Positions 27,301 through 63,896 of a DNA stretch of 64,000 bases are shown here, piece by piece (the first letter of the stretch is position 1; every line of letters starts with the position of its first letter). Both the position numbers and the translations under genes were made by a program. The DNA is from a virus. Where the stretch lies: IMG/VR virus record IMGVR_UViG_3300033112_000310, positions 44,441 through 108,440 of that record; one strand, given 5' to 3'. Below the pieces are notes generated by a model, which did no database searches, was not told the DNA's origin, and saw only the letters and a program-made list of their open reading frames with translations.

Positions 27301-27737
27301 GCTTCCGCGAACGCGATGAGCGCCGTGGCTTCCGCGTCGGTCAGGGCCGCGTTGGTACCCTGGTTCGACCAGGTGTACGGCTCGTTCCTGTCGGAGGAAC
27401 CCGGAGCTTGGATGGTCACGGAGCGCGTGCCGTTCGTCAGCGTCAGCGTGCCGCCCGTCTCCCAGGCGTCCGAAAGCTCGCGGTTGTTGTTCCCTGTGTC
27501 CGTGGGCGTCTGGCCTATCTCCAAGTCCAGGGATACGCCGCCCACGCCGTCCACGAGGATGTTCAGTTCCGAGGGGTAGGCGGTTCCGCCCGCGCCCGCG
27601 CCCGACGCCTTGCGCAGGTCCGACACGACCTGCTCGTCCGAAATCCTGCCCGCGTCGTAGGAGACGAAGGTGGTTCCGGGTCCGAGGGCCGCGCTCTTGG
27701 AGAATCCGGCGGAAAGCGTCCAGGTCTGGCTAGCCAT
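24321..27737 (-). CDS. FN3/PKD and collagen-linker modular tail fibre protein
   Basis: DDGGSAITGYQWRY...GLTNGSVYEAQFKAVNSVG type FN3 unit twice; Gly-X-Y linkers; modules shared with neighbouring genes. Confidence 0.8.
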   Translation of the reverse strand: MASQTWTLSAGFSKSAALGPGTTFVSYDAGRISDEQVVSDLRKASGAGAGGTAYPSELNILVDGVGGVSLDLEIGQTPTDTGNNNRELSDAWETGGTLTLTNGTRSVTIQAPGSSDRNEPYTWSNQGTNAALTDAEATALIAFAEAAQTNQAGTLVLDDGQVATAPARGGTPTTTPGDGSGKWVAAAPDDGGSAITGYQWRYKLTSAQAWTSSNESSNTLNLSGLTNGSVYEAQFKAVNSVGAAAQWSPSGALTPRASLPVASAPQTVTIGPVADGDEGTTVKLGATVTKGTGLYDTGPVYAWTVRQGNTDVTSAVLDDATLASPTFTRPQVSADTDYTVGLSVTVRGNGTTARNGTSATKAATAVTTTVENVPAPPVATVPARGTAPAANASAGRIAWTATAPNNGGAAITGYDWRWRRVGTQSWTTISTTGRTLTRTGLTAGQRYEAQFKARNRVGAAAQWSPSGTATVPTTSLPAPTPPTVVINPVPDGNEGVGVRLTARLTGGSSGVTYAYAWTIDDATTGLDDATSASPLWTRPSVTSDTDYDIDLRVTVTGDGESHAGTATADAATVSSTVTDLPSSSRWDGTKTLRIGVSEDDENDIKALVAGSPLTVYADADNYGQYILKGAVAFAGTGAARTATFELTHVRHKGTVPDSGAVEIRYTPGGLPGIRGLAGYGAVIARTTKASSTANLNATRWHLDGAATDWTGNRTFSIRVTEAEETAIGLIGAGALVTIYRDKDNWADYTLTSVAFTGSGTGRTAALSLAFVEGFGKPPASGEAELHYTPKGDPGKDGRPGRAGVSTWVDSQFRDSGTPADGDLFVPLGSPASFTDELDEDNAESVSQLTIQAPDGSAMHAFLTQVEQGDIVVMWLDDANWIDYLVTSRNAVSSGFVVVNVRHVEHRLAGGIPNGSIRLGFSKAPKGVAGRPAAGTILNYDDIGNINNNGGYQFREADKSGIGGNWSDVRNNAAFLRIGDADSDGNDTTKVIESVEPGEVVTWLVGDHRWMAWEVTSNASVTGGREWGIELIAEDETGNTGAVSINPGTKVKIIVSADHRAAVAAFTGVEKKDTSYLTGKGTATDKLAVDADALGGNVEVAKAKTNSYLTGTGKDDDGLAVDRDAIVAGLFSGVSFTVS

Positions 27738-32743: not shown

Positions 32744-33316
32744 CTAACCCGTCCTTGCTTCGATCAGGGACACGCGCGGGACCGCGATGCCGTGGTCGTT
32801 GGTTCCGAAGGTCAAGCCGCTGCCCGCCCGGTGCTTCACCCGGACGGTCGGCGTGAAGTCCACGGCCGCCCCGTTGGTCACGGCGTTGACGAGCGCCGGT
32901 TCGATGTACCGGGTACGCCCGGTTCCCGCTTCGGCGATCTGGTACAAGGGCCGCGCGCCTGACACCTGGAAGAACGCGCCGACCGGTACGGCCACGCTGA
33001 ACACCACTTCCTTCGCGCCAATCGCCTTTCCCCCGTTGAAGGTCGCAGCCGCCGGGGGTTCGATGCCAAGTCCCTGGAACCAGTCGAAGTCGAAGGCCCG
33101 TCCCGTGCCGTAGCGGTTCTTGTGGCCCATCAGGACCATTTGGGCGCCGCTCGCTTCGACTTCCGTTTCGGCCTCAAGGTCGAACGCGAGCGTGTACCGC
33201 TTGTTCATCCCGCCGGTGGACACCTGCTCGACACCGCCCGCCCGCGCGTCTTCGGAGTCGTCCTCCCATCCGGGCGTCGCCGGGTGCATGATCGTGTAGC
33301 CGAGAAACGTGGCCAT
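32744..33316 (-). CDS. distal tail protein (putative)
   Basis: Directly after tape measure; GRAFDF and IEPAL motifs. Confidence 0.6.
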   Translation of the reverse strand: MATFLGYTIMHPATPGWEDDSEDARAGGVEQVSTGGMNKRYTLAFDLEAETEVEASGAQMVLMGHKNRYGTGRAFDFDWFQGLGIEPPAAATFNGGKAIGAKEVVFSVAVPVGAFFQVSGARPLYQIAEAGTGRTRYIEPALVNAVTNGAAVDFTPTVRVKHRAGSGLTFGTNDHGIAVPRVSLIEARTG

Positions 33317-36300
33317 CAGCGCAGAATCCCCCGCGCCCGTAGCTGACGCTCGACCACATGGCTGTACTCCTCGGCCTTCTGGTAGAACACGTCGTCAACC
33401 TGGTCGTCCAGGCGACCGACCAGTTGCGGCGCGAACACGAACTGGTTGCCGCCGCGTATCTGGTCGAGCGGTATCACCGTGCCTTCGACCTGCGGCAACA
33501 GCACTTCCGGCCCGGCTTCGCCCACGGTGTAGAACTGGCCCGGTCGTACAGGGCCGCCGTACTGGCGCCCGCCACCGAACCCAAAGCCGCTGGCGATGGA
33601 ACCGAGGATGGCACCGAAGTCGATGTTGGAGAAAACCTCGTCCAGCGACCGGCTCAATAGCGAAGCCGCGATGGCATCCAGTACGCGCCGTCCGAAGTCG
33701 TCAAAGTCGGCTTCGCGTATCGATTCCTCCAAGCTGCCTCGAATGGCGTCGCTCACGTCGTCCCCGTAGAGGGCGAAGTCGCCTAGTTCGATCCGCCGCT
33801 GCTCGCGTTCCAACTCTGACTGCGCGGCCGCCAGCAGCCGGGCTCCTTCTTCCGTTTTGATGAAGGAGTCGTCGAGATTGAGTATCGCCTCCGACAACTC
33901 GTTCGCGCGGCGTCGGGAGTCGGATCGCACGGCAAATCCGGGGTCGGTTTGCCCAAGGATGGATTCGAGGATGTCGGCATTCGTTCGGGCGGCTCGTCGT
34001 CGTGCATCGCCGATCCGCTTCTCCAATTCGACGACGATTGCCGACTCGCGGCCTAATTCCCGGCGGATGGGGATCAATGCGCGGTCGTACTCGGCGACCT
34101 GTTCCAACGCACGGATTTGCGGGTCGAACTGGCCCAACAGCGATTGCGCCAAAGCGCCCGGCAGTCGCTCGAAATCGGCCTCCATCTCCGCCAACGCTTC
34201 CCGAGCTGCTTTCACCGCAGCCGCCGATGCGTTGCCGCTATTGGCGAGCGCATCGAATTCCGCTTGAAGCGTCTCGATTTGGAGGCCCGCACGTAGGATG
34301 GGGTCGTCCTGAGCCGCAAGCCTGCGCAACTCCCGATCCGTCGCATCGCCGCCGGCTTCCCGTGCCAGCGTCAATCGCCGCTGAGCACGTATCAACAGTT
34401 CCGTTCCGGCCACCGTTGCGAGGAGGCTAGGGGCCAACAGGTCCAACGCGCGTTGCTGTTCCTCCACTTGCAGCAACGCCTGGCTGGTCGGATCGCCGAT
34501 GATTTGGCGGGCCTGATCGGTAGGCAGACGGGCAGCGGACTCGCGCAGACGTTCCAGTGCGTCCCTTGCCGCTTGGATGGCCGGTGCCGATGCGTTGCCG
34601 GACGTTTTCAACAAGTCGAACTCGTGTTGCATGTCGGCCACTGCCAAGGACGCCGCCACGATGGGATCGTCGCGCCCGGCCAAGGACAGTAGTGCGCGGT
34701 CGGTCGCAGCCAGCGCCGCGGAACGGCGGATGTCCAAGGCGTCTTCGGCACGCTCCAACAGCATCGCTCCTGCTGCCGTCCTCTCGAGGCTTCTGGTCAG
34801 CCGGTCGAGTTGCCGGGCTTCGTTCTCGACCGCTAACAATGCCGTTCCGGTCGGGTCGCCGACGACGCGACGGGCCTCATCAATCGGAAGACGTGCAGCG
34901 GAGTCGCGCATCCGATCGATTGCTTCTGTCGCGGCACCGACGTCCGTCCCGGCATCCCCGGCCGTCTCGGCGAGCTTGCCCAACTGTTGGGTCAACCGAT
35001 CCGCTTGGAACAGGGCTTCCGCCTCCGGGTCGCCACGCACGGCGATGGCCCGTATCTGCTCGGCAGCTTGCTGCCGCTCGGCCTCCTGTGCTTGCGCCGA
35101 GTTGATGGTGCGGATGATTTTCCGCAGTTGGCTCAGTTCCTTGGTTGTGAGTTCGGAGACGGCAGCTTCGTAGTCGAGAGTCCCGGCGGCTGCTTGAGTG
35201 ACGGCCTGCGACAGTTTGCCGGACGCATCGCCGAGTATCTGGTCGGCGACCGCGAACGCGGATGCCAATTCAATGCTGCCAGCCGAAATCCCACCGGTCG
35301 CGTCCTCGAATGCCGCTCTCGCGGCTGCAATCTCGGCCTGCCGGGCGGCATCAACCGGCGGAACGGCGGCAGCGGCAGTCGCCGCTGCGCTCGCACGGTC
35401 GAATGCGGTCGAGACTTCATCGAGTCGCCGTGTGAGTTCCCGAAGGCGAGGTCCGAAAACATCCTCTGCGGCGGTCCTTGATCGCTGATCGGGAGCTCGC
35501 GCGATGTCATTGTTGATGTCTCGTATCTCCCGACGAAGGCGTAGCTCCTCCAGAGAGAGGTCGGTCAGATGCTGGTACGAGTCGATCAGATCGTCGGTTT
35601 CCCTGCGGATGTCAGTCGAATCCCGGGGCGGGGTGATGCCAAACGAGCCTGTGACGAATGCAAGTTGGAGCCGGTCGTAGTCGAACGCCGCCCCGGCAAC
35701 CCTTTCCTGCCGCCCGATCTGTTCGGCGATTTCGCCGACCAACGCACGAAAGCCACGCACCCCCCGTGCGCGGGCGGCCAACTCATCACCGACACCGATG
35801 AGTACCTGGCGGAGGTTGACGGCATCCGCCGCCATGTTGCTGATTTCCGCCGTCAAGGCCGTGGCACCGTTAGCCGCCACTTGAAACGCTTGGCCGAAGG
35901 TGCGGGTCAGGTTCTGGAAGTCACCGTCGATGTCTTCGGCCTGTGTCTCAATCGCCGCAAGGACGCGCTGTGTCGTCAGCAGGCCGGCTTCCGCCTGCTC
36001 GCGCAGTTCGCCCACGCCGCTCAACCCGAGTCCTTCGGCCAGCGCCCGCGACAGGCGGGCGTTGCCTTCCAGCACGCCGCGCAGTTCGTCGCCAGCCAGC
36101 CGGTTGGACGCCAAGCCCTGGGTGAACTGGATTGTCGAGTTGACCGACTCCCGGATGGTCGCGCCGGACAACGCGTAGGTCTGCTGGATGGCGCGCGCGA
36201 TCCGCAGTTGCCGTTCCTGACTGATGTTGAACTGCTGCGTGGTCAGCGCGATGCGCGAGACGAGAACGCCGGTCGCCTGGATGGACGTGAGCGTGTCGTT

Positions 36301-36615
36301 GGACAGGCCCACCACGTCTTCCAGCGTGGCCGACGCCCGGGCGGAGCGCAGCCGGTTCTGGATGTTGGTGATTTCGTCCGCCGCGTTGACGAGCGCCCGG
36401 GCCGTCCGCCGCGCAGCCTCGAACCCGACCAACGCGACGGCACCGCTGCGGAACGTCGAGAAAACGGAGTCGGAGAACTGGCGACCCGCACGACTGCCAA
36501 CCTGGAAGTCCCGGCGGGCCGAGCGGACGAACCGGTTGATGGCCTGTTCGGCTTCGCGCGACCCCCGGCGGATCCCTCTGGTGTCGGCGGTGAATCGGGT
36601 TATGTAGTCAGGCAT
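33316..36615 (-). CDS. tail tape measure protein
   Basis: IQFTQGLASNRLAGDELRGVLE tape-measure domain; Ala-rich helical repeats; C-terminal GGPVRPGQFYTVGEAGPEVLLP. Confidence 0.95.
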   Translation of the reverse strand: MPDYITRFTADTRGIRRGSREAEQAINRFVRSARRDFQVGSRAGRQFSDSVFSTFRSGAVALVGFEAARRTARALVNAADEITNIQNRLRSARASATLEDVVGLSNDTLTSIQATGVLVSRIALTTQQFNISQERQLRIARAIQQTYALSGATIRESVNSTIQFTQGLASNRLAGDELRGVLEGNARLSRALAEGLGLSGVGELREQAEAGLLTTQRVLAAIETQAEDIDGDFQNLTRTFGQAFQVAANGATALTAEISNMAADAVNLRQVLIGVGDELAARARGVRGFRALVGEIAEQIGRQERVAGAAFDYDRLQLAFVTGSFGITPPRDSTDIRRETDDLIDSYQHLTDLSLEELRLRREIRDINNDIARAPDQRSRTAAEDVFGPRLRELTRRLDEVSTAFDRASAAATAAAAVPPVDAARQAEIAAARAAFEDATGGISAGSIELASAFAVADQILGDASGKLSQAVTQAAAGTLDYEAAVSELTTKELSQLRKIIRTINSAQAQEAERQQAAEQIRAIAVRGDPEAEALFQADRLTQQLGKLAETAGDAGTDVGAATEAIDRMRDSAARLPIDEARRVVGDPTGTALLAVENEARQLDRLTRSLERTAAGAMLLERAEDALDIRRSAALAATDRALLSLAGRDDPIVAASLAVADMQHEFDLLKTSGNASAPAIQAARDALERLRESAARLPTDQARQIIGDPTSQALLQVEEQQRALDLLAPSLLATVAGTELLIRAQRRLTLAREAGGDATDRELRRLAAQDDPILRAGLQIETLQAEFDALANSGNASAAAVKAAREALAEMEADFERLPGALAQSLLGQFDPQIRALEQVAEYDRALIPIRRELGRESAIVVELEKRIGDARRRAARTNADILESILGQTDPGFAVRSDSRRRANELSEAILNLDDSFIKTEEGARLLAAAQSELEREQRRIELGDFALYGDDVSDAIRGSLEESIREADFDDFGRRVLDAIAASLLSRSLDEVFSNIDFGAILGSIASGFGFGGGRQYGGPVRPGQFYTVGEAGPEVLLPQVEGTVIPLDQIRGGNQFVFAPQLVGRLDDQVDDVFYQKAEEYSHVVERQLRARGILR

Positions 36616-38100: not shown

Positions 38101-38652
38101 TCAGTCGACGGTTTGCGGGTCCAGGGAGCTTGACGCCTCGAATACGACCAGGCCGGCGGTCGCGTCCAGGCCGCGCTGGATGCTGTCCACGACGGACGTC
38201 GGCACGAGGTTCCAGCGCAGGAGTCGCTGACCGCCGGTGAGCCACGGCCGAATGTCACCGGCGATGAGCGACCGGGCCATGACGAGTATCTTGGCGCGTT
38301 GTTTGCGGGACGGGTCGTCTTTGTCCGCGAGCCGCGCCAGTTCGTCGACCACTCGTTGTTGCTGTCTCGGGTTCCGGCGATCCGACGGGTCCGTCGTGAA
38401 ATCCGTGACCGCCACCGTAATCACCAGGTCGAACGTCCAGACGAAGCCGCGCGGACGGCCCGTCGGCCCTTGCCCCGCTTCGTTGCCGACGCGGTCCACG
38501 GAGACCCCGACGTTGCCCGAGGCCGCTGCGGTTACCCGCGCTCGCGCGACAACGCGGGGGCCGGGCGTGTCGGGGGGCAGCAGGGGCAGAATCCCGGACT
38601 TGTCCAGCTTGTCCGCAAGGACACTGACCACCGCTTCGTCTATCGCCCGCAT
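38101..38652 (-). CDS. putative tail completion/terminator protein
   Basis: Synteny upstream of the tail tube gene only. Confidence 0.45.
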   Translation of the reverse strand: MRAIDEAVVSVLADKLDKSGILPLLPPDTPGPRVVARARVTAAASGNVGVSVDRVGNEAGQGPTGRPRGFVWTFDLVITVAVTDFTTDPSDRRNPRQQQRVVDELARLADKDDPSRKQRAKILVMARSLIAGDIRPWLTGGQRLLRWNLVPTSVVDSIQRGLDATAGLVVFEASSSLDPQTVD

Positions 38653-39269
38653 CCGCCTTCTCCCCTGCGTGCTTCGTCACGCCACCGCGCGACCACCCCG
38701 GCTTCGACGCCTGCGTGTTCGGGCACATGCCACCAGCCCCACAGCTCGGGCCTGTCGCATACCAGCAGGCACGGCCACCCCTTCGCCGCAAGGCGCTCGA
38801 CCGTCTCGCGGTCGTCTTCCACCGCCAACGCCACCCGGTTGCTTCCGCGGGCCGCGTAGGCGAGCTTGAGTTCCGGGTTCCGTCTCGTGTCGTCGTTGGC
38901 CCGACAGAGCGTGAACGACGGCACCACCCCGTGCCGGCCAAGCCACTCGTCGGCAAGATCCCGGTGGCGCGTCGGCTCGCCCGTCCACACGCAACACTCG
39001 GTGCCAGCGTCCTGCAGGCGATGGAACAGGTCGATCACCGCGGGTCGCGGCGGATCGTCCAGCAGCCGGGCGAAGTATTCGGGCCACGACGGCGCAGAAG
39101 CGCGACGCTGCGCGTTGTCCGAAAGGGTGCCGGCGAGGTCGAAGTAGACGCGCTCGCCCGTAGGGTCAACGCCGGCAGGTCGGTACTGGTGTTCGTCGCA
39201 GTACCAGCCGTCGACAAGCCGGGGGCACCCCGGCCAGTCGCATTCGAGAAGGCTCGAGCCTTGTCCCAT
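38640..39269 (-). CDS. HAD-family phosphatase-like protein (PseT/PNKP phosphatase type) with N-terminal zinc motif
   Basis: FDLAGTL, WTGEP, K, VEDD motifs; N-terminal CDWPGCPRLVDGWYCDEH. Confidence 0.75.
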   Translation of the reverse strand: MGQGSSLLECDWPGCPRLVDGWYCDEHQYRPAGVDPTGERVYFDLAGTLSDNAQRRASAPSWPEYFARLLDDPPRPAVIDLFHRLQDAGTECCVWTGEPTRHRDLADEWLGRHGVVPSFTLCRANDDTRRNPELKLAYAARGSNRVALAVEDDRETVERLAAKGWPCLLVCDRPELWGWWHVPEHAGVEAGVVARWRDEARRGEGGCGR

Positions 39270-40159: not shown

Positions 40160-40510
40160 CTAGCAGGGGTCGTGCAGAACCTTCGTCTCGCGAGCGACGA
40201 GTTCGCCATCGACGATGGTGTCGATATGGCTCTTGCCGACCACGCACTTGTTCTCGTCGTCCCGGAATACGTTGTCGTACAGAAGCCACGCGGCGCCAAC
40301 GCCGAGAACAGTTAGCCCGGTGGCGACTAGGATGTCCTCGTTGTGCTCGGAAAGCCGGTACGAATCCGTCGAGGAGCGTTCCCGCTCCAATCCGGGGTAG
40401 TAGCCGATCTGCACGCCCGGCATGTCGGTCGCCGGCGTTATGGCCACCGGGGCGGTCGCGCACGACGCGAGTAGGAATGCGGCCAGCGCCGCAACGAGTG
40501 CTTTGGTCAT
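40160..40510 (-). CDS. lipoprotein with internal TM helix (unimolecular spanin-like?)
   Basis: MTKALVAALAAFLLAS-C lipobox plus later TM ILVATGLTVLGVGAAWLLY; located in the lysis cluster. Confidence 0.55.
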   Translation of the reverse strand: MTKALVAALAAFLLASCATAPVAITPATDMPGVQIGYYPGLERERSSTDSYRLSEHNEDILVATGLTVLGVGAAWLLYDNVFRDDENKCVVGKSHIDTIVDGELVARETKVLHDPC

Positions 40511-40520
40511 TGTTGCTCTC

Positions 40521-40943
40521 CTAGATGACAAGGTAGCCGTGCTTGGCCATCCACGCGGCGACCACCGCCACGGCAACCGCAGCGACGAACGGCAGGATGT
40601 CCGAACGCGACATCGCGTCTAGCCGCTTCTCCTCCAGTTCGAGGAACCGGTAGGCCAGATTGAACAGTTGGTTGATGACCGCCCCGCCGATGCCCCACAG
40701 GACTTCCGGTATCTCGGCCTGCGTCCAGGCCTCGATGACGAACACCGAAAGGAACACGACGACGCCCGACGACGCCACGGTCAGAACGTTCTTGTACCAG
40801 GGGCGGAACGTGTTTGGGCGACCGTCGCCCGAGTCCCCCGTAGGCGCCGGCGGCGTCTTGCGTGCCAGCTTCACCGCGAGCACGACAACGGCGATGAACA
40901 GCGCGCCGCTCAGCAACGCCAGAGTTGCAGTCCAGTCGATCAT
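40521..40943 (-). CDS. multi-pass membrane protein, holin candidate
   Basis: Three to four hydrophobic helices in 140 aa next to the lysozyme-like gene. Confidence 0.55.
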   Translation of the reverse strand: MIDWTATLALLSGALFIAVVVLAVKLARKTPPAPTGDSGDGRPNTFRPWYKNVLTVASSGVVVFLSVFVIEAWTQAEIPEVLWGIGGAVINQLFNLAYRFLELEEKRLDAMSRSDILPFVAAVAVAVVAAWMAKHGYLVI

Positions 40944-54843: not shown

Positions 54844-56661
54844 CTACAGCGGGATTGTCTCGATCTTCGGCACCGGCTCGTCCGCCTCAAGGTTCATGGC
54901 CCGCCCGCATCCCATCGTGCAGCAGATCGCCCCGTCGATCTTCTTCGCCCGGTTCTTCGGTCGCGGCGGCTTCACGGTGTCGTCGTCGTACCGCTTGCCC
55001 ACGAAATTGTCCACCATCCAGTTCAACACGGGGTTGTCCGGGTGCCGGAAGCGCCCGGAGTCCACGGCGCTTTGGAACTCGTACATGGCGTTCGTGTACG
55101 TCGCCGCGCCCTGGCCGAACCGCACGATCTCCGTCCATACAACCGACTCCCCGACCGTCTGTTCCACGCCGCTCGATCGGTTTGGGTCGGTGATGTATTC
55201 CTTGGCCAGAAGATCGTTGAGCCAGTTGGTGATGGTCGCCGCCACCTTGAGAATGTCGATTTCCTCGCCTTCGTGAAGCGTGATGTACGGCTCCCACGGC
55301 TCGTAGCGCCGCACCTTCTCGAACGTGGCGCGCGGCAGCCAGAAGAACGGGACGGCCCAATAGATGCGCGGCCACTTCTTGGTGCCGTCCGCGAGCACCG
55401 CCGGCGTCACGTCCTTGTCGTCCTCGTAGAACAGGACCACTGCGGCGGTGAAGTCGATCTTGGCCGCTAGGTCGGTGACCACCACGCACGGCAGATGCTT
55501 GAGCATGTCGAACACCCGAGGGTCGTCCGGAGAGACGATTTCGGCGTCGGGATCTCCGTCCGTCCACCCTTCCTCGCGTTCCTTGTCTTCGTATTCGCGG
55601 TGCACCGGCAGCATGTCGTAGCCGTTCTGCGCCCAGGCGTTCATGTCGATCCAAGGGTCGGCCTGGCCAATCCAGATGTTCAGGTTCTTGGTCTTGAACG
55701 CCGTCTGCTGGTGCCGCGAGCGGATCGCTTCCTGCTGGTCTTCGCGCAGCGTCCCGATGAAGGTCGAATGGCCGATGTTCGGGTTGGCCTCGTACAAGGC
55801 CTCGTCGGTCTTCCAATGATCCGGGTCGGCATCGTCCTTGATCGTGTAGATGATGGCGAACTGGCGGTCGGCCTTCGTGTCGGTGAGCGTGCCGGCTAGA
55901 ATGTCCACCATGTCGCCGCGCAGCCGGTGGCACGGCCCGTCGATGTTGTCGCCCGCAGTGGTGATGACGAACAGCATGGCCCGGCGCCGTGCCCCGGTGC
56001 CGGTCTTGAACGTCTCGTAGGCCCGGGCGTGGTCGTGCTCGTGGTACTCGTCAATGACCACGAACGACGGGCTGTCGCCGTCAGGCGGATCCCCGACCAC
56101 CGGCTTGAAGCTCAGGTTCTCGCTGTCGTTGTAGATCGACTTTTGCAGCACGTCGAGACTCAGGTGCTGCCGCAGTTCGTCGTCGTCCCGGAGCATCTGG
56201 TACGCCGGGTGGAACACCTTGTAAGCCTGCTTCTCGTTCGTGGCCGCGCAGTAGACCTCCGCGCCCGGCTCGCCGTCCATCGTCAAGAAGTAGAGACAGA
56301 ACCCTGCAGCGAAGGTTGATTTGCCCGACTTCCTGGGGACTTCGACGTAGGCTTCCTTGTACTTCCGAAACCCCTTGTGCTCGCCCTCGGCGTAGTGCAA
56401 CCCGATGATGTTGGCGATGATGAAGCACTGGTAGGGGGACGGCTCGAAACGCTGGCCCCGCCACTCGCCGCTGACGTGCGGCAACCAGGTGAAGAACTCG
56501 CCGCAGTCGCTGACCGCCTGGCTGTCGTAGTAGAGGTCCGGGCGTTGCAGGTCGTCCGCGAACCGCTGGCACGCCTGGACTACGAACTTGCACGCCGGGA
56601 TGTTGCCGTGAAGGACGCCTTCGGCGTAGTCGAATGCGGTTTCGGTGAACCGGTCAGCCAT
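54844..56661 (-). CDS. terL: terminase large subunit
   Basis: VPRKSGKS Walker A, VVIDEYH Walker B, ITTAG, DLAAKIDFTA, KIDGAI. Confidence 0.97.
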   Translation of the reverse strand: MADRFTETAFDYAEGVLHGNIPACKFVVQACQRFADDLQRPDLYYDSQAVSDCGEFFTWLPHVSGEWRGQRFEPSPYQCFIIANIIGLHYAEGEHKGFRKYKEAYVEVPRKSGKSTFAAGFCLYFLTMDGEPGAEVYCAATNEKQAYKVFHPAYQMLRDDDELRQHLSLDVLQKSIYNDSENLSFKPVVGDPPDGDSPSFVVIDEYHEHDHARAYETFKTGTGARRRAMLFVITTAGDNIDGPCHRLRGDMVDILAGTLTDTKADRQFAIIYTIKDDADPDHWKTDEALYEANPNIGHSTFIGTLREDQQEAIRSRHQQTAFKTKNLNIWIGQADPWIDMNAWAQNGYDMLPVHREYEDKEREEGWTDGDPDAEIVSPDDPRVFDMLKHLPCVVVTDLAAKIDFTAAVVLFYEDDKDVTPAVLADGTKKWPRIYWAVPFFWLPRATFEKVRRYEPWEPYITLHEGEEIDILKVAATITNWLNDLLAKEYITDPNRSSGVEQTVGESVVWTEIVRFGQGAATYTNAMYEFQSAVDSGRFRHPDNPVLNWMVDNFVGKRYDDDTVKPPRPKNRAKKIDGAICCTMGCGRAMNLEADEPVPKIETIPL

Positions 56662-57277
56662 CCTTGGCCGGCGGCTTCTTCGCGAACCGCTTGGACGCTT
56701 CGATCACCGCCCCCCGGTCGGCACGTTCGACGGCTTTGTCGCCGGCCTTCGGACGCGCCGGCGCGCTGCCGCGGCCGCGGGACTGGCCTTCGACACCGGA
56801 GAACCTGCCGGCGTCCTTGGGCGGCGGTGCCGCTTCCAGCCGTTGGCGACCGACCGGGTTGCGCCCGAAGTCCGTCCACTGGCCGCGGAGTTGCTGCAAT
56901 AGCTGGACGGCGAGACGCGCGCTAGGCGCGGGCATCGGGCCGGCAGTGCGTTGCACCGTCAGTCCGTTCTCCGAAACGTCCTGCGCCGCCTGCCAGAAGG
57001 TGAACGTGGCCCAACACTCGGCCGCCACCGCGTCCCGGTCGGGGTTCTGCATCACGCCGGCGGTCGCGTACTCCCTCACCCGGTCGCGGTACATGGCCCG
57101 CAGTACCCGGGCCTTGTCGGGCGGCTGCGTCTTGACGAGCGCCGCGAAGCCGGGCGGCAGACGATTGATCAGGTGTGTTTCGTAACGCGGTTGCAGCGGG
57201 TTCATCCGGCTCGGCTGAGCCGTGCCCCGCCGTTCCTTGGTCGCGTCCGGGAGCGCCTTTCCCGTCTTGTTAGCCAT
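56654..57277 (-). CDS. terS: terminase small subunit (P27 family)
   Basis: Overlaps the terL start; K..RGT...R.N...P N-terminus; DFGRNPVGRQRL. Confidence 0.85.
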   Translation of the reverse strand: MANKTGKALPDATKERRGTAQPSRMNPLQPRYETHLINRLPPGFAALVKTQPPDKARVLRAMYRDRVREYATAGVMQNPDRDAVAAECWATFTFWQAAQDVSENGLTVQRTAGPMPAPSARLAVQLLQQLRGQWTDFGRNPVGRQRLEAAPPPKDAGRFSGVEGQSRGRGSAPARPKAGDKAVERADRGAVIEASKRFAKKPPAKDG

Positions 57278-57419
57278 CGTTAACCCCGCCGATCAAACTA
57301 GCGACAAGCGTCCTGCGGATGTGGTCGTATGCGCGCTTGGCGAGCGCGTGTTGGTGGACGAAGCCGACGACGTAGCCGACGACCACGGCCGCCACGAGCC
57401 ACCACCAGTCAACCACCAT
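57270..57419 (-). CDS. small membrane protein (49 aa)
   Basis: Read manually: MVVDWWWLVAAVVVGYVVGFVHQH...; stop overlaps the terS start region. Confidence 0.55.
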   Translation of the reverse strand: MVVDWWWLVAAVVVGYVVGFVHQHALAKRAYDHIRRTLVASLIGGVNDG

Positions 57420-57427
57420 GATCGAGC

Positions 57428-57700
57428 CTACTGGACGTGCTGAACCACAACGGAGATTGTGCCTCGGGTATCCACCGCGACCACTGGCGGCACGTAAGCG
57501 ACCACCGATGGATCGTCGGGATCAGGAACGATTGCGCCGGGGTCGGCCGACCAGGTGTATCGCGTCGTCCGGGGAATCTCCACGTCGCCGACCAACTTTG
57601 GTTGCGTGTTCGGTGTCTTGCGAGCATCCGCTAACGCGCGGACCCCGACGCCGGCGAACGGCAATAGCGCCAACAGCCGGAACAATCCTCTTCGGTTCAT
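57428..57700 (-). CDS. twin-arginine-leader protein carrying a major-capsid-like peptide
   Basis: MNRRGLFRLLALLPFAG leader; LVGDVEIPRTT matches capsid LVGDVAIPRQT; GGGAG SD. Confidence 0.7.
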   Translation of the reverse strand: MNRRGLFRLLALLPFAGVGVRALADARKTPNTQPKLVGDVEIPRTTRYTWSADPGAIVPDPDDPSVVAYVPPVVAVDTRGTISVVVQHVQ

Positions 57701-57762
57701 CCGTCTTCTCCCGTCATCCAAGTCGCCCGGAGCGTGGCTGACCATTTTGCGAATGGAACGAG

Positions 57763-57948
57763 TCACGCGCAAATCGGGTCTTCGCCTTCCGCGTCCCTGA
57801 TGTCAGCGCGCAGCATCCACCCGTCCTGCAACGCCTGCACGTAAGACTCGTACCGATCCGCGTTCGCGCGTGTAACAAAGCTGCGGCCAACAAGGGCAAT
57901 CGGCAACAGCCCCAACACGCGCCGGAACAGTCCCCTTCGGTTCATCAT
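57763..57948 (-). CDS. twin-arginine-leader protein carrying a portal C-terminal-like peptide
   Basis: MMNRRGLFRRVLGLLPIAL leader; 16 of 25 residues identical to the portal C-terminus; GGAG SD. Confidence 0.75.
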   Translation of the reverse strand: MMNRRGLFRRVLGLLPIALVGRSFVTRANADRYESYVQALQDGWMLRADIRDAEGEDPICA

Positions 57949-57995
57949 CTCTCTCCGTCATTCGAGCCGAACAGGCGCGAACATACCACGACTCG

Positions 57996-58328
57996 TCAGC
58001 GCCGCCGGTAGTCCCATCCGGTCTGGCGCTCACTGGCGGATTTCCGCCCGTGGCAGGACGAGCACATCGAAACGAGGTTGTTTGGGTCGAAGAACAGCTC
58101 GGGATCGCCCCGGTGGGGCGTGTCGTGGTCGGCGACCGTCGCCTTCCTGCCGCAATCGCACCACGGCTCGCGGGCCAACTGGTCGGCCCGCAGCCGGCGC
58201 CATTCGGCGGTGCCGTAGAGCCTAGCGCGGTTCGCGGGTTCGGCGTCGGCGTGGTCGCCGCAGTACCGCCCGCGCGTCAGGTTCGGGCATCCGGGGTGTT
58301 CGCAAACCTGGCGCGGACGGGTGGCCAC
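57996..58328 (-). CDS. HNH endonuclease (HK97 gp74-like packaging cofactor)
   Basis: CEHPGC...YCGDH; LAREPWC..ATVADHDTPHRGD..LFFDPNNLVSMCSSCHGRKS. Confidence 0.92.
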   Translation of the reverse strand: MATRPRQVCEHPGCPNLTRGRYCGDHADAEPANRARLYGTAEWRRLRADQLAREPWCDCGRKATVADHDTPHRGDPELFFDPNNLVSMCSSCHGRKSASERQTGWDYRRR

Positions 58329-58331
58329 GGC

Positions 58332-58853
58332 TCAGGCGATGGAGACTGTTTCCGTCTTGAAGGTGCCGTTGTCGTGCCGCGTGATGTCCGTTCGACGCTT
58401 GCTTCCTCTCGGTACCGTCAACGTCTTGACGCCGTGCACATCGAAGAACGACGACAGCTTGCGGTGAAGGGTGTCGACGTGTCTCTGGGCTTGTTCCAAG
58501 CCGTCCCGCGCGTGCTCGACTTCTTCAAGCGCATGAACGTAGCGCACTGGAATCTGAACGTCCAAGGCCACCACCGATGCGATGTCGGGATCAAGCCCCA
58601 TGCGCGTCAACTGGTCGCGCTGCATGGCGCCGAACTCGATGGGCGTCCTGCCTTCGGACGGCGGCGGCGGCGGCTTGTCGATAACGCTAAAGCCGTGCGT
58701 CTCACGGTAGGACGCCACGGGTTCCGCCTGAGCCGACGGTTCCGCCTCGGCAAAGACCAAAAGCCGTCCACCACCCATGTCGCGGATGTACCGCCCTTCA
58801 ACGTCCACGAACGCGGATTGGTGGGGTGCGAGAAAGATTCGGTAGATTCTCAT
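58332..58853 (-). CDS. hypothetical protein
   Basis: 173 aa with GGAG SD. Confidence 0.65.
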   Translation of the reverse strand: MRIYRIFLAPHQSAFVDVEGRYIRDMGGGRLLVFAEAEPSAQAEPVASYRETHGFSVIDKPPPPPSEGRTPIEFGAMQRDQLTRMGLDPDIASVVALDVQIPVRYVHALEEVEHARDGLEQAQRHVDTLHRKLSSFFDVHGVKTLTVPRGSKRRTDITRHDNGTFKTETVSIA

Positions 58854-58908
58854 GTCAAGTCTCCGTTGTAGGTAAAGTCGGATGCCCGACCGACCCTAAC
58901 CACAACGC

Positions 58909-59226
58909 CTAGCATTCCCGCAGAACGCCGGCCTCGACCCAACCGTGCCATATGGTCCGCTCGCCGCTCTCGAACCGCACCTTGTGGTGCAGCGACGGGT
59001 GCAGCGTCGGCGCGTCGTCCGGCCCGTCGCACGTCCAGGTGTGCTCGCTGCCGTCGCTCGCCTTGACCGTCCGCGGACTGATCGGCCACGCCGCCATCAC
59101 CTTCTTGCCGTTCAGCCGGTCGGGCGTGCAAAGGTAGAGTTCGCGGGTGCCGTCCCGGTGCCGTATCCAGTGGAAGTCGCCCGGTTCGCGAACCGCTTCC
59201 ATCGAGAACCGCTCGTGCATTCGCAC
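58909..59226 (-). CDS. DUF6527-like protein
   Basis: WTCDGPDDAPTLHPSL...WHGWVEAG. Confidence 0.7.
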   Translation of the reverse strand: MRMHERFSMEAVREPGDFHWIRHRDGTRELYLCTPDRLNGKKVMAAWPISPRTVKASDGSEHTWTCDGPDDAPTLHPSLHHKVRFESGERTIWHGWVEAGVLREC

Positions 59227-59235
59227 GGCGACGGC

Positions 59236-60558
59236 TCAGCTCGGGTCGCGCGGCTGCAACGCGCCGATGAAGTGGCGCTGGAAGAACGCCAGCAGGAAGG
59301 CGCGCTGCTCGTCCGTCAGGTTGTCCATGCCCGGCACCATGTCGCGGTTCGCCGGAACCATGTTGGCCGGGACAAGCACTTCGTCCATGCCGGCGACCAT
59401 CGGCTTGCCTTCCTTCCCACGGACTTCCGAGCGCAGAAGCCAGCCGTCCATCAACGCCTGGTGGTAGGCCTCGTAACGGTCCTTGATGTTCGCCTCGAAG
59501 ATCACGTCGTGGTCGAACTCGTAGAACAGGCCGTGGCCGCGCTCGCGCCGCGTCAGCAGCTTCCGGGTGCACTCCTCTTCCCACACGATGTAGTTCGGAA
59601 TCATCGTGTGCTTGCCGAAGTGCGCGTCCTGTTCGATCGCGTTGGTGAACGTGTTGTGCTCCAAATCCTGCACGAACACCGGCGGCACCCGGTAGATGCC
59701 GCACACTTCCGACCGGTTGAATTGAAGCCACTGCAACGTCTGCGCATCGACCGGGCTTATCATCGTCGGCTTCCACTGAGCGCCCCTCGGGAGAATCGGC
59801 GTCTGGTTGGACGAACCCCCGTCCTGGCCGAACTTCTCCCGCCAGTTCTCCGCGAACTCATCGATCGCCCTGACGGTCATGTCGGTTTCGACCACGCCCT
59901 TGGGACTGCCGCCGCGCGCGTAGAACCGCCCCGTGTGGATGTGCGCGGCCAACCCCTGGCCGATGACCTCGCGCGCAATGCGGATCGGTGAATAGCCCTG
60001 AATGCCGTTGAACCCTAGATTGGGGATGTGCAGCACGTCGTCGGCCATCAGCCGGCGCGTCTTCCTGTCCTTGCCCGGCCCGCGATGGTCGCCGGTCACC
60101 AGGTAGACGAGCGACCCATCCTTGAGGTACTCGGGGGTGACCTGCTCGGCGTAGAGCATCCGCACTTCGATTGGGAACGGCCCGTCGCGGATGATTTCAG
60201 CGTAGCCGTTGCCCCAACCCTGACGTTGCGCCTCGACCGACTGCTTGAACGTGTACGGCGTCTGGTCTTCGTTGGGCAGCGACGACATCAACCCGAACAG
60301 CCGGTGGTTCACCGCCGGCTCGGCGCCCCGACCGTCCGGCAGACGGCGCATCAGCCGCAAGGGGGTGCGCGCCAGCGTCTCGCTCAGAACCTTGATGCAC
60401 GCGTGGACGTAGCTCAACTGCATGGCGCGCGTCACGTTGACCGCGACGCCCGACGAGTTCTCGCCTTCCTGCTTTAGCAGCCACTCCGCGTACTTCGACG
60501 CGTTGCCGATCGCCTGGAAGTAACGCTTGGTCGCGTAGAAGAAGTTCGTCAGTTCCAA
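59236..60558 (-). CDS. HK97-family portal protein
   Basis: YVHACIKVLSETLA, GWGNGYAEI, DVLHIPNLGFNGIQGYSPI, IYRVPP. Confidence 0.97.
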   Translation of the reverse strand: MELTNFFYATKRYFQAIGNASKYAEWLLKQEGENSSGVAVNVTRAMQLSYVHACIKVLSETLARTPLRLMRRLPDGRGAEPAVNHRLFGLMSSLPNEDQTPYTFKQSVEAQRQGWGNGYAEIIRDGPFPIEVRMLYAEQVTPEYLKDGSLVYLVTGDHRGPGKDRKTRRLMADDVLHIPNLGFNGIQGYSPIRIAREVIGQGLAAHIHTGRFYARGGSPKGVVETDMTVRAIDEFAENWREKFGQDGGSSNQTPILPRGAQWKPTMISPVDAQTLQWLQFNRSEVCGIYRVPPVFVQDLEHNTFTNAIEQDAHFGKHTMIPNYIVWEEECTRKLLTRRERGHGLFYEFDHDVIFEANIKDRYEAYHQALMDGWLLRSEVRGKEGKPMVAGMDEVLVPANMVPANRDMVPGMDNLTDEQRAFLLAFFQRHFIGALQPRDPS

Positions 60559-60670
60559 AGGTCGCGCCCTCGCCGTTCACCGATGGTCGGGCGGAACGGA
60601 CCCGCCGAGAGCAATCGGCCGCCGGCGGGCGACCGGGCGGGACCGTCCGCCCGCCCGTCGAATCGAACCG

Positions 60671-60961
60671 CTACTTCTTCGGCGTCGGCTTCCGGGTGCC
60701 GTCGCCGCTCTCGCCGCCGCCGTTGTCGCCGCCGTTGTCGCCGTTGCCGCCGTTGTCGCCGCCGTTGTCGCCGCCCGGATCATCGTCCGTAGGCTGACGG
60801 CGGCGGTTGCGCGGAGCCGTCGAATCCTCGAACAGCGGCACGCCTTCACGCGACCGGTGCTTGAGCGCGTTGTAGTCGTTCGCCGGCATCTGCACGCGGT
60901 CGCCCTTGCTGCGCGCCCTGCCTTGAACGTACATGTTGAAGTTCAGTTTTACCCACTTCAT
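60671..60961 (-). CDS. small head-associated protein with GGDN repeats
   Basis: GGGAG SD; KGDRVQM motif; low-complexity tail. Confidence 0.65.
   Translation of the reverse strand: MKWVKLNFNMYVQGRARSKGDRVQMPANDYNALKHRSREGVPLFEDSTAPRNRRRQPTDDDPGGDNGGDNGGNGDNGGDNGGGESGDGTRKPTPKK
60712..60776 (-). repeat. imperfect 12-bp tandem repeat (GGCGGCGACAAC) encoding GGDN
   Basis: Visible in the sequence. Confidence 0.85.
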
Positions 60962-61007
60962 GGTTGTTGTGCTCCCGTCAACTCGTTTGGGTGTGTGCCG
61001 CCGCGCG

Positions 61008-61412
61008 CTAGGTGTACTGGCCGCGCGTCAGCAGGAACGCGGCGCCGACGTTCAGCGATGCCCCCGTTCCCGTCTCGGTAACCACCGCACGGACGTACCG
61101 CTTGCCGCCCAGGTAGGCATCGAGAATCGCCGCTTGGTCGACGGTCGTCGCATTGATGACGCGGGACGCCTCGCCGGAAGCCATCATCCCGGCCTCCACG
61201 TCCGCCCAGGCGGTGCCGTCGTCGCTGTCCTGCACCTTCAAGGTGTAGTAGTTCGCCGCGGTGAGGCTCGCGCCCGCCCCGACGACCCAAACGACGCCGA
61301 CCCCGCCGTGCTCGACCGTGTCGACCGATTCGCCGTTCGCCGAGGCCGACGCATTCTGCGCATCCAGCGAGCGCACCACGTCGACGTTGCCGAAGTCCTT
61401 CTTCTGAAACAT
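61008..61412 (-). CDS. capsid decoration/cement-like protein
   Basis: Directly after the capsid gene; LKVQDSDDGTAWADV...YLGGKRYVRAV. Confidence 0.65.
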   Translation of the reverse strand: MFQKKDFGNVDVVRSLDAQNASASANGESVDTVEHGGVGVVWVVGAGASLTAANYYTLKVQDSDDGTAWADVEAGMMASGEASRVINATTVDQAAILDAYLGGKRYVRAVVTETGTGASLNVGAAFLLTRGQYT

Positions 61413-61495
61413 GCCCTTCTCCTTTCGTTTCGGGTTGGGGCGGAACCCGATATTAGGCCCGCCCTTGTTTCACTTTGCGTTCGTGCCGTCTCCGC

Positions 61496-62983
61496 TCAGG
61501 CGAAGATCGCGAACGATTCCGGGTGCCGAACAGCCACGTCGCACGAGTGGAAGATGATCACCCGGACGGCACCGGCGGTCGAACGGCTGTAGGGGTCAAC
61601 CAGAATGTCCAGCATCCCCCATTCCCCGACAATGACGTCCGACCAGTTCCCGAAGAACAGTTCGTTCAACGTGATTTGGTTCGATTCGGCCAACGGATAG
61701 GGCAGCTTGTCCGCCAGGAACACGCCCGACCCCGGGTCGACACGCCTGCGCATCATGTTGGTCGTGATCGTGGCCCCGCCCGTGAACCCGAGGTTGCCCA
61801 TCAAGGCGTTGTCCGTCGCGATCTCCTTGCGGAGTTCGAGAACCCCCAACCACGTCGGGTCGCCCTCGTCGCCCTTCTTCGTGTCGATCTCGTTGATCGC
61901 CGTGTCTTCGTGCGTGACCGAACCGACGCCGGTTACGTTCTTGACGCCCAACGGTTGCCCGTTCACGCCCGTACCGCGGAACGCGGCCCGGTCTTCGGCG
62001 AGCGCCACTTCCGTCATCAGGTCGCGACGGATGAAGTTCTCCACGGCCACCGACGACTGCAACCGCAGCGCGCGGGTGTAGTCGGTGTACGCGCCGACCG
62101 TCCGCGGGGTCATCGTGATCTGGCCGACAGCCTGGTCGGTGTTGCCGACGTCGGCCCCGTCCTTCGGCACCCACGAGACGACGCCCGCGCCCGTCTGCCG
62201 CGGAATCGCCACGTCGCCCACCAGACCGGTAAGCATCGTGGCACCGAGCATCGGCAACGCCTGGTTGTTGCGCAGCAGTTCGATCATCGACTGCGGCCGC
62301 CAATCGACCCCCACCAGCGCGCCGGCGCCGGAGAAGTCGTCGGCCGACAGATCCCGCTGTTCGATGCCCCAAAGGTCCATCAGGGCACGGCCCGCTTCCC
62401 GCGCCATATCGCTCTTGTTGAAGATCAGGCACTTGAGCCGGGCAATCGCGGCCGCCCGCTGGCCCGTCACCACGTCGCCGTACACGTCGGGCGGAACGTA
62501 GAAGCCGAGCGGCGCATCCTTGATCTGCGCCGAGTACGCATCGACGGCCTCAAGTTCCATGCGCGCCGCCTCGCGGTCGGCGTCGATCGCACCCTTCGAC
62601 CGGGCGATGATCAGCTTGTTGAACGAGAAGTCGCGCATTTCCCGGTCGCTCAGGCCGATGGGGTCGGTCAACCGGTTGCTGTACTGGCCGACTTGAAGCT
62701 GACGCTTGATGGCCTGGCGCTGTTCGTGGATTTCGCCGCATTCCCGCTCAAGTGTCTTCTGCTCCTCGATTTCGTCCGGGGTCAGGTTCCTTGATGCGAG
62801 AAAATCGCCGATTTCCGACAATCTCACGCGTTTCTCGTGTTCCTGCTCGCGCAGCCGGCTTTCCCGCGTCCGCAGGTTGCCGCGCTGTTCTTCCGCAGTC
62901 GTCGTCGGGCCACCGCCGCCGGGGTTGTTCCCGCCGCCGTTGTTCCCGTCGCCGTTCCCGCCGTTGTTCGGTTCATCCGGCAT
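61496..62983 (-). CDS. HK97-fold major capsid protein
   Basis: N-terminal coiled-coil delta domain; GDVAIPRQT, AFRGTG..GQPLG, FFGNWSD, DVAVRHPESFA. Confidence 0.97.
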   Translation of the reverse strand: MPDEPNNGGNGDGNNGGGNNPGGGGPTTTAEEQRGNLRTRESRLREQEHEKRVRLSEIGDFLASRNLTPDEIEEQKTLERECGEIHEQRQAIKRQLQVGQYSNRLTDPIGLSDREMRDFSFNKLIIARSKGAIDADREAARMELEAVDAYSAQIKDAPLGFYVPPDVYGDVVTGQRAAAIARLKCLIFNKSDMAREAGRALMDLWGIEQRDLSADDFSGAGALVGVDWRPQSMIELLRNNQALPMLGATMLTGLVGDVAIPRQTGAGVVSWVPKDGADVGNTDQAVGQITMTPRTVGAYTDYTRALRLQSSVAVENFIRRDLMTEVALAEDRAAFRGTGVNGQPLGVKNVTGVGSVTHEDTAINEIDTKKGDEGDPTWLGVLELRKEIATDNALMGNLGFTGGATITTNMMRRRVDPGSGVFLADKLPYPLAESNQITLNELFFGNWSDVIVGEWGMLDILVDPYSRSTAGAVRVIIFHSCDVAVRHPESFAIFA

Positions 62984-63017
62984 GGTTCTTCCCTCTAGCT
63001 GTTGGTTACCCGCTCGA

Positions 63018-63896
63018 TCATTTCAGGGAATCGAGCAATCCCTTGTTCTCCCGCTTCTTGGCATCCAGCGCGCCCTTGAGCCGGTCGCGCTCGCCTTCGA
63101 GCTCGGTGATCTTCTCCCGCTGCGCCGCCGCGAGGTCGCGCAGGTTGTTCAACTCGACCATTTCCTGCGCCCGTTCCAGCGTCGTCGGCGCCGCCGGCGG
63201 AGGATTCGGATTCGGCTCGGACGGCGAGGGTCGCGAACCCCCTCCGTTCCCGCCGCCGTTGTTCCCGTCGCCGTTGTTTCCGTTCCCGTCGCCGCCGCCA
63301 GCCGCAGCCGCAGCCGCAGCCGCAGCCGCAGACCGCGCGTCCCGCCATTCCTGGAACGAACGCTTGGCGACCTCGCACGACGTGTCCGAATAGGCCGCGA
63401 ACGTCACCGGGCCGACATCGTAGAGTTCGTCGACCCGCGTGATGGTCCGCAAGTAGTCGTCGTCCGCCCGCTCGTCCCACTCGTAGGCGCCGGTGCGGAA
63501 GCTGAACGACGACTGCGAAACGTCCCCGCGCTTGATCGCCTGGTAGACCATTTCGGCGTTCGCGCCCGGCGGCATCTTGTTCCGGTAGCGCAGCCCGGTG
63601 TCGTCCACCGACAGTTCCAGGCTTTCGCTGATCTTCGTCCGGCCTAGCGGAAAGTTCGTGTCGTGGTTGAACAGGCACCTGCAGTCCGGGCCGTCCGCGA
63701 GCACGTCATCGAACGCCCCTACGGCGATCTTCTCGCTGTGCCCCGGCCAAAGCTCCGTCTCGGAATCGAAGACCGCCGCGTACCCTTCGATGAAGACCGC
63801 GGCGTCGTCGCCGTCGCCTTCGGCCCGTATCTCGATTGGCCCAAGGGCCGTGTCCAGCGTCCGGCGCTCGATCACGTTCGTCACTTCGTCCGGCAT
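63018..63896 (-). CDS. HK97-family prohead protease with C-terminal extension
   Basis: IEGYAAVFD, LFNHD, GLRY, SSFSF, ELYDVGPVTFAAY. Confidence 0.95.
   Translation of the reverse strand: MPDEVTNVIERRTLDTALGPIEIRAEGDGDDAAVFIEGYAAVFDSETELWPGHSEKIAVGAFDDVLADGPDCRCLFNHDTNFPLGRTKISESLELSVDDTGLRYRNKMPPGANAEMVYQAIKRGDVSQSSFSFRTGAYEWDERADDDYLRTITRVDELYDVGPVTFAAYSDTSCEVAKRSFQEWRDARSAAAAAAAAAAGGGDGNGNNGDGNNGGGNGGGSRPSPSEPNPNPPPAAPTTLERAQEMVELNNLRDLAAAQREKITELEGERDRLKGALDAKKRENKGLLDSLK
63301..63330 (-). repeat. (GCCGCA)5 hexamer repeat encoding poly-Ala
   Basis: Visible in the sequence. Confidence 0.9.

Follow-up and report, generated by a model that had tools for sequence, protein, structure and literature searches.

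Phage genomes are mosaic, and 'moron' insertions and chimeric open reading frames (ORFs) arise in them by illegitimate recombination and partial gene duplication. In HK97-like cos phages, HNH endonuclease, terminase and portal genes reportedly form a packaging module, an arrangement that is said to have been described by Kala and co-workers in 2014. Portal proteins of the HK97 family belong to the models PF04860 and TIGR01537 and are represented by the solved portals of HK97 (8cez, 8fql) and phiXa (9lbn). According to the passages cited here, portal domains follow the order clip, stem, wing and crown (PMC10359639, PMC7296036), and the crown is oriented towards the inside of the capsid with its packaged DNA rather than towards the terminase (PMC10359639). 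In the cited part of a further study, portal proteins trigger the bacterial immunity system RAZR, and Avs4 is mentioned in the same paper (PMC13017515).

Here, we focus on ORF61, a reading frame of 61 codons in a phage packaging module, in which a fragment homologous to the C-terminal part of the resident portal follows a leader homologous to that of a neighbouring small gene, ORF90. We assign a probability of roughly 55% to the reading that ORF61 is a chimera left as a by-product of recombination, probably translated and possibly exported, which would be under relaxed constraint and likely has no role in DNA packaging. A titles-level search of the literature, which is weak evidence of absence, yielded no earlier description of an export leader combined with a fragment of a portal crown.

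The head module around ORF61

The window, i.e., the whole stretch of DNA that was analysed, is 64,000 nt long and corresponds to positions 44441-108440 of the 111,982-nt IMG/VR virus record IMGVR_UViG_3300033112_000310, which has 65% GC and a CheckV completeness estimate of 89%. The sole public run containing the stretch is a DNA run from a sponge metagenome, which may be the source, and the public-run look-up listed no RNA run containing it. A 16.8-kb Logan contig with a depth of about 28 matches window positions 56500-60700 at 100%. This contig is an independent assembly of the sponge run, possibly of the same sample, and hence the ORF61 sequence is not an assembler artefact. The genes of the module are as follows:

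54844-56661, minus strand: large terminase (TerL)
56654-57277, minus strand: small terminase subunit (TerS), downstream of the small-gene cluster (PF05119, E 3.6e-9)
57270-57419, minus strand: ORF49, with a hydrophobic N-terminal helix, third small gene between HNH and TerS
57428-57700, minus strand: ORF90, neighbouring small gene and second parent of ORF61
57763-57948, minus strand: ORF61 (from the ORF list; source gene call P0001)
57996-58328, minus strand: HNH endonuclease, directly upstream of ORF61 (phrog_144, E 4e-25)
59236-60558, minus strand: HK97-family portal, 440 aa (PF04860, E 1.3e-79, 268 bits)
61496-62983, minus strand: major capsid protein, 495 aa
63018-63896, minus strand: S78 prohead protease
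108520-109467 of the record (window-equivalent 64080-65027), minus strand: second capsid-family gene, 315 aa (PF05065, E 1.8e-24)

Read along the minus strand, the order is protease, capsid, two small head genes, portal, a DUF6527 protein, a 173-aa orphan, HNH, ORF61, ORF90, ORF49, TerS and TerL. As in the packaging modules of HK97-like cos phages, HNH, TerS, TerL and an HK97-type portal are neighbours, but here three small ORFs lie between HNH and TerS. Against the Pfam HNH model, the endonuclease scores slightly under the cut-off (E 7e-4). ORF49 overlaps the TerS start by 8 nt, and family-profile searches returned no match for ORF49 or ORF90. Together with ORF61, these two genes form a cluster of three small genes in the HNH-TerS interval that are predicted to be likely envelope-directed.

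In a relative with a portal 45% identical to the resident one (L005), TerL is followed by portal, protease and capsid, which is the canonical order. Here, by contrast, the genes for protease, capsid and portal are all located upstream of HNH, TerS and TerL rather than downstream of TerL, which shows the head module (54844-63896) to be rearranged. The second capsid-family gene lies past the right end of the window, directly upstream of the prohead protease, and its product shares 30% identity with the major capsid protein of 495 aa (E 1e-31); hence, the head module has two HK97-fold capsid paralogues. Three head proteins carry low-complexity tracts rich in Gly, Asn and Asp, all encoded on the minus strand: in the C-terminal part of the protease after an Ala run (63018-63300), at the N-terminus of the capsid protein (62850-62983) and at the C-terminus of a 96-aa protein (60671-60760).

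A portal fragment behind a leader of the ORF90 type

Within and next to ORF61, and in the portal gene, the following elements can be delimited:

57949-57956, minus strand: Shine-Dalgarno-like purine run immediately 5' of two ATGs, found by sequence inspection and conserved at the head of ORF90
57859-57948, minus strand: leader of ORF61 (aa 1-30), its first 20 or so codons paralogous to the ORF90 leader
57766-57858, minus strand: portal-derived segment of ORF61 (aa 31-61), with a gap-free core of 25 codons at 57784-57858
59404-59481, minus strand: donor-type segment in the portal gene (residues 360-385), encoding a pair of short helices that come after the long wing helix

In a pairwise BLASTP comparison, ORF61 matches residues 360-389 of the resident portal with 18/31 identities and one gap (41.6 bits, E 1e-10), and in a six-frame search of the complete record with ORF61 the portal was the only other strong match (E 8.3e-9). 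The first-pass annotation had described the C-terminal half of ORF61 as a diverged copy of the conserved C-terminal motif of portals, with 16/25 identities free of gaps. Both points stand: our recount gave 9 differences over 25 residues and placed the portal codons at 59407-59481, within the interval of about 59401-59496 given before, and the matches to the portal families fall on their end positions. Specifically, ORF61 residues 27-55 match positions 293-321 of the 321 positions of PF04860 (Phage_portal, E 0.042) and residues 28-59 match positions 310-341 of the 343 positions of TIGR01537 (E 0.009), so that the homology covers residues 27-59 of ORF61 and the final 29-32 positions of the two models. 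Because the portal part of ORF61 is a fragment only, these matches remain well under the family cut-offs (13.5 vs 39.1 bits for PF04860, 15.1 vs 112.05 bits for TIGR01537). Unlike HK97-family portals, ORF61 comprises only about 7% of a portal, is devoid of clip, stem, wing and tunnel loop, and begins with an unrelated hydrophobic leader. Modelled alone, it is a single low-confidence helix (pLDDT 67) rather than a full portal fold. Judged by its sequence, ORF61 is portal-derived and not itself a portal. Several of the differences had also been presented as conservative: the five listed as such are present, but the other four (H/V, M/Q, G/D and K/A) are not conservative.

At the DNA level, the homology extends from 57781 to 57867 in ORF61 and from 59404 to 59493 in the portal gene and ends sharply on both sides. 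Beyond these limits, no portal similarity was found in any frame, neither upstream in the leader nor downstream, and an extension past the ORF61 stop is not significant. This extension, in which the stretch from the ORF61 stop into the ORF90 leader (57621-57780, minus strand) aligns colinearly and with many gaps to the 3' tail of the portal gene (59247-59403, minus strand), is equalled in score by 124/500 shuffles. Over the core, 53/75 bases are identical and 22/75 differ. Among codons for identical residues, 4/15 differ in the portal piece against 7.3 expected (P 0.054) and 9/29 in the portal piece and the leader pair together against 15.4 expected (P 0.008), where the expectation comes from redrawing synonymous codons from the phage's own codon usage. 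This excess of common synonymous codons argues for shared descent at the DNA level and against convergence. With 25-31 residues the segment is short, as it might be if the similarity were a chance match or an assembly artefact; given the E values, the common synonymous codons and the identical sequence in the independent assembly, the probability of this explanation is negligible.

The second parent of ORF61, which the earlier annotation had missed, is ORF90. The leaders of the two ORFs are identical at 15/20 residues (E 2e-6), and the homology of their DNA starts upstream of the ribosome site and continues over about 20 codons, interrupted by a 3-nt indel that keeps the frame. The first 8 residues, including the twin arginines, are identical despite 2 synonymous changes. 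Over 19 codons of the leader pair, differences are distributed 4/2/6 by codon position with a dN/dS of 0.21. Both ORFs have a purine-rich ribosome site and Ala-x-Ala-Asp at the end of the leader. ORF90 likely starts at the ATG at 57700 (90 aa), and the listed 114-aa form with a TTG start is unlikely; the protein consists of the signal-like leader and a 64-residue orphan cargo. As leader and ribosome site copy the head of ORF90 and the tail copies the portal, ORF61 is a chimera of two parents. Its similarity to the portal sets in at the Asp codon that follows Ala-x-Ala; by eye, G-GA-pyrimidine is read there in both parents, and it is plausible that this codon represents a microhomology joint.

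ORF61 comprises 61 aa when read from the first ATG (57948) and 60 aa from the second (57945), and its stop is the TGA at 57763-57765. The second ATG is better spaced relative to the ribosome site than the first, and the source gene call (P0001, 60 aa) begins there. In the called frame, GC by codon position is 0.63/0.47/0.76; GC3 is thus 0.76, compared to 0.73-0.82 in the neighbouring small genes and 0.84-0.90 in the core head genes. According to the ORF list, spurious long ORFs are abundant in all frames of the region. The sole Rfam match in the ORF61 region is a snoRNA model at 22 bits, below its gathering score of 40, the RNA fold z-score of the region is -0.64, and no promoter or terminator around ORF61 scored above the shuffled background.

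The leader had been called Tat-like. By inspection, it has arginines at positions 4-5 and 9-10, followed by a hydrophobic core of 11 residues that includes Gly and Pro and then by a basic c-region that ends in Ala-x-Ala at 28-30; in its basic N-region with consecutive arginines, hydrophobic core, basic c-region and Ala-x-Ala it is comparable to Tat/Sec signal peptides. However, in Pfam and NCBIfam neither the Tat-signal models (PF10518, TIGR01409) nor any other signal HMM gave a match to ORF61 or ORF90 with E up to 10, in searches in which the HMMER filters discard most matches above E of about 0.1. Neighbours in the ESM Atlas with a TAT_signal or an assignment as Tat substrates score 0.84-0.85 and serve as a lead only; all Atlas matches of ORF61 are below 0.9, and no structural match was found there. 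Typical Tat cargo is a folded protein, whereas the cargo of ORF61, for which export is predicted only, would be a 31-residue peptide. 'Signal-peptide-like' is a fair description of the leader, while Tat dependence would be a guess.

Cleavage of the leader would leave an acidic product of 31 residues with a net charge of about -5, compared to 0 for the portal segment. Each of the four differences that alter the charge makes ORF61 more acidic, a direction that is not significant (about P 0.125). ORF61 might therefore be viewed as a small exported or membrane peptide under selection, e.g., for superinfection exclusion or envelope modification, in which the portal helices merely provide a soluble acidic tail. 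The well conserved leader and the uniform acidification are in line with this view, as is the company of ORF90, with the same leader type, and ORF49, with its hydrophobic N-terminus, in a moron-like slot. Yet no family, PADLOC-independent annotation or homolog backs any such function, and given that the charge direction falls short of significance we consider a selected envelope peptide rather unlikely.

Constraint on the portal-derived part

Modelled with AlphaFold on an alignment of 78 sequences, the resident portal reaches a pLDDT of 86 and a pTM of 0.79. The portal sequence matches PDB entries 9lbn_H and 8cez_A (phiXa and HK97 portals), and the model superimposes on solved portals including these two with TM values of 0.64-0.83. 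In the model, the copied segment forms helices 358-371 and 376-382 (pLDDT about 94), which follow the long helix 304-334. From the usual domain order, we infer that this helix-turn-helix is the start of the portal crown. Residues R361 and E383 of the segment are invariant and Y365, G372 and R380 nearly so, and ORF61 keeps the invariant Arg and Glu as well as the nearly invariant Tyr, Gly and Arg.

The differences between ORF61 and the portal had been taken to suggest selection at the protein level rather than decay, with a codon alignment as the proposed check. This alignment gives a divided answer. Differences in the portal piece are distributed 8/4/10 by codon position, which is indistinguishable from even (p 0.28), and 12/6/16 when the leader is included (p 0.11). 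In contrast, the Nei-Gojobori method yields a dN/dS of 0.41 for the portal piece, which falls to 0.34 when the leader is included, and in the latter set non-synonymous changes are fewer than their neutral share predicts (P 0.025), although in such parent-versus-copy statistics part of the measured constraint belongs to the branches of the parents. A dN/dS of 0.41 is far above what would be expected for a portal segment at sub-saturated synonymous divergence.

Comparison with other portals is similarly two-sided. When random mutations were placed onto the portal segment, eight conserved residues, which had been hand-picked by eye from 39 sequences, were all kept in 5% of cases when 10 hits were assumed and in 0.04% when 22 were assumed. 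Among 77 other portals, five columns are at least 70% conserved, and ORF61 changes none of these (0/5, P 0.08); at a threshold of 60% it changes 2/8 (P 0.37), and the match was noticed in the first place precisely because conserved residues survive. Over the 25 core columns, the resident portal differs from ORF61 at 9 positions and from the closer portal P0003 at 6, while ORF61 and P0003 differ at 11. These distances place about 7 changes on the ORF61 branch and 2 on that of the portal, which corresponds to an approximately 3.5-fold faster rate. Four of the nine ORF61 replacements are common at their column (22-40% of the 77 portals), whereas five are rare or absent (0-4%). The helix-capping polar position, Asn in 68% of the 77 portals, is Ala in ORF61 and in none of the 77, and Val at column 7 and Ala at column 18 are among the ORF61 residues that do not occur in them. 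Hence, the evidence on selection rather than decay is mixed: dN/dS and the spared columns speak for it, but the faster ORF61 branch and the rare replacements do not. Evidence for constraint on ORF61 at the protein level is suggestive only, and on our reading of the alignments the portal-derived part has been under relaxed or altered constraint since the fusion.

The same observations bear on the idea that ORF61 is maintained as a mimic of the crown helix-turn-helix, which would bind a portal or crown partner and modulate or poison the assembly of its own or a competitor's ring, or titrate a host sensor of portals. Retention of all five strongly conserved columns, the dN/dS values and the four replacements that are common in other portals would fit such a role, as would the location of ORF61 within the packaging module between HNH and TerS and, in the passages cited above, the triggering of bacterial immunity by portals (PMC13017515). 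However, export or an N-in, C-out topology would take the portal-like part out of the cytoplasm, the compartment of portal assembly, which weakens a role in that process. Moreover, the crown is turned towards the capsid interior and its DNA in the cited text and not towards the terminase (PMC10359639), the helix-capping Asn is lost, the ORF61 branch is the faster one, and on its own ORF61 is modelled as one helix of low confidence. In addition, no homolog of ORF61 is present in the clusters, representatives and metagenome contigs searched. A maintained mimic is therefore improbable in our view. Still less probable, and in fact very doubtful, is the more specific proposal that the leader was welded to the phage's own crown helices and kept for crown recognition, so that the product would block the assembly of competitor portal rings or act as a decoy for a host portal sensor.

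Origin of the chimera

Searches of 5.8 billion protein clusters returned only ORF61 itself at near lengths and, at longer lengths, 89 candidates, none of which was a relative at E up to 10. A phmmer search over 1.84 billion representatives found ORF61 alone, and 596 pattern matches in JGI metagenome contigs included no relative. In a tblastn search of 80 portal-bearing viral loci, ORF61 matches portal genes: nine of its ten best matches are within the 3' portion of the portal match and the tenth, in L057, is 1.4 kb beyond a partial portal match. Protein and contig searches found no homolog of ORF90 either; its sole match, in L084, lies within a 1042-aa ORF and was rejected as spurious.

The closest portals to the resident one are 34% identical in genome contigs and 47% in viral contigs, and the closer portals P0003, P0004 and P0005 are 68, 55 and 53% identical, respectively. 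Over its core, ORF61 shares 16/25 residues with the resident portal and 14/25 with each of P0003, P0005 and P0006. Three states are common to ORF61 and the resident portal alone. On the other hand, ORF61 has Gln at column 11 as in P0003, P0005 and P0006 but not the resident portal, and it does not have the one-codon deletion before Pro that is common to the resident portal and P0003. Both features indicate that the split between ORF61 and the portal is not recent, and it could be about as old as the divergence of the resident portal from P0003. Synonymous divergence is alike in the two halves of ORF61 and below saturation (pS 0.46 for the portal piece, 0.43 for the leader), which is compatible with one event having made the chimera.

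Several of these features would also be accommodated if the portal-like part were a decaying remnant of a second portal, foreign or ancestral, left after shuffling of modules and kept open by the rarity of stop codons at 65% GC. The head module is rearranged and has a second capsid-family gene, long spurious ORFs occur in all frames, ORF61 retains states no longer seen in the resident portal (Gln at column 11, no one-codon deletion), and it is only two residues nearer to the resident portal than to P0003, P0005 and P0006. A remnant, however, does not readily explain why the homology ends sharply on both sides with no portal similarity in any frame, nor why a duplicated leader with its ribosome site precedes the piece in the same frame. 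Furthermore, synonymous sites are unsaturated, which is unexpected between portals so different in protein sequence, GC3 is still specific to the frame, and the Val at column 7 and Ala at column 18 that no other portal shows argue against recent capture from a working portal. We thus regard the remnant as an unlikely origin.

Segmental duplication has been active in this genome, as indicated by 6 intragenomic paralogous pairs among 226 filtered ORFs of the record. Two adjacent minus-strand ORFs of 1138 and 1485 aa (24321-27737 and 27741-32198), probably duplicated tail or fibre modules, have a common 285-residue region with 46% identity (E 3e-48); a 44-aa pair on the opposite strand (25528-25704 and 29317-29460, 82% identical) is probably the same repeat read antisense. 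A 1099-aa ORF (33316-36615, minus strand) and a 112-aa ORF about 37 kb apart from it (record 40247-40585, minus strand) are 34% identical over 83 residues (E 2e-8). The N-termini of the HNH endonuclease (57996-58328, minus strand) and of a 209-aa protein with a PNKP phosphatase domain (38640-39269, minus strand) share an 18-residue motif rich in Cys and His (10/18, E 2e-5), another short module common to unrelated genes of the phage.

For ORF61, a single tandem duplication does not fit because the portal-type segments are 1,623 nt apart and the leaders 245-248 nt. A simple 245-nt tandem duplication was also rejected on inspection: at the matching offset, ORF90 has no counterpart of the portal-like part of ORF61. 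Each part of ORF61 does have a parent in the same genome, with sharp boundaries and descent at the DNA level, as is the case in chimeras made by partial duplication. ORF61 further resembles mosaic phage ORFs in its position at a module boundary (HNH/TerS) and in the presence of other segmental duplications in the record.

In the by-product reading that we favour, ORF61 would likely have arisen between HNH and the terminase genes when illegitimate recombination or partial duplication joined an ORF90-type ribosome site and leader in frame to 26-31 C-terminal codons of the portal, with the joint presumably at the Asp codon after Ala-x-Ala. The product is predicted to be translated and to be exported or inserted into the membrane, as one of what would be three small envelope-directed proteins encoded at this interval. 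After the fusion, the portal-derived part would have come under relaxed or changed constraint and turned acidic, and ORF61 probably has no role related to the portal or to packaging. Based on the two alignments, we consider ORF61 a real chimera of the gene-birth type with a hypothetical functional role.

If ORF61 was kept because it shares the binding partners of the crown helices, no earlier mimic peptide derived from a portal would be known to us, and ORF61 would provide a link to the sensing of portal proteins by bacterial immunity, as far as the cited passages describe it (PMC13017515). If it is a by-product, as we favour, ORF61 would be a clean, small example of the birth of a phage reading frame, in which a ready-made translation start and leader were fused in frame to a short stretch of an essential structural gene, with both parents still close by in the genome.
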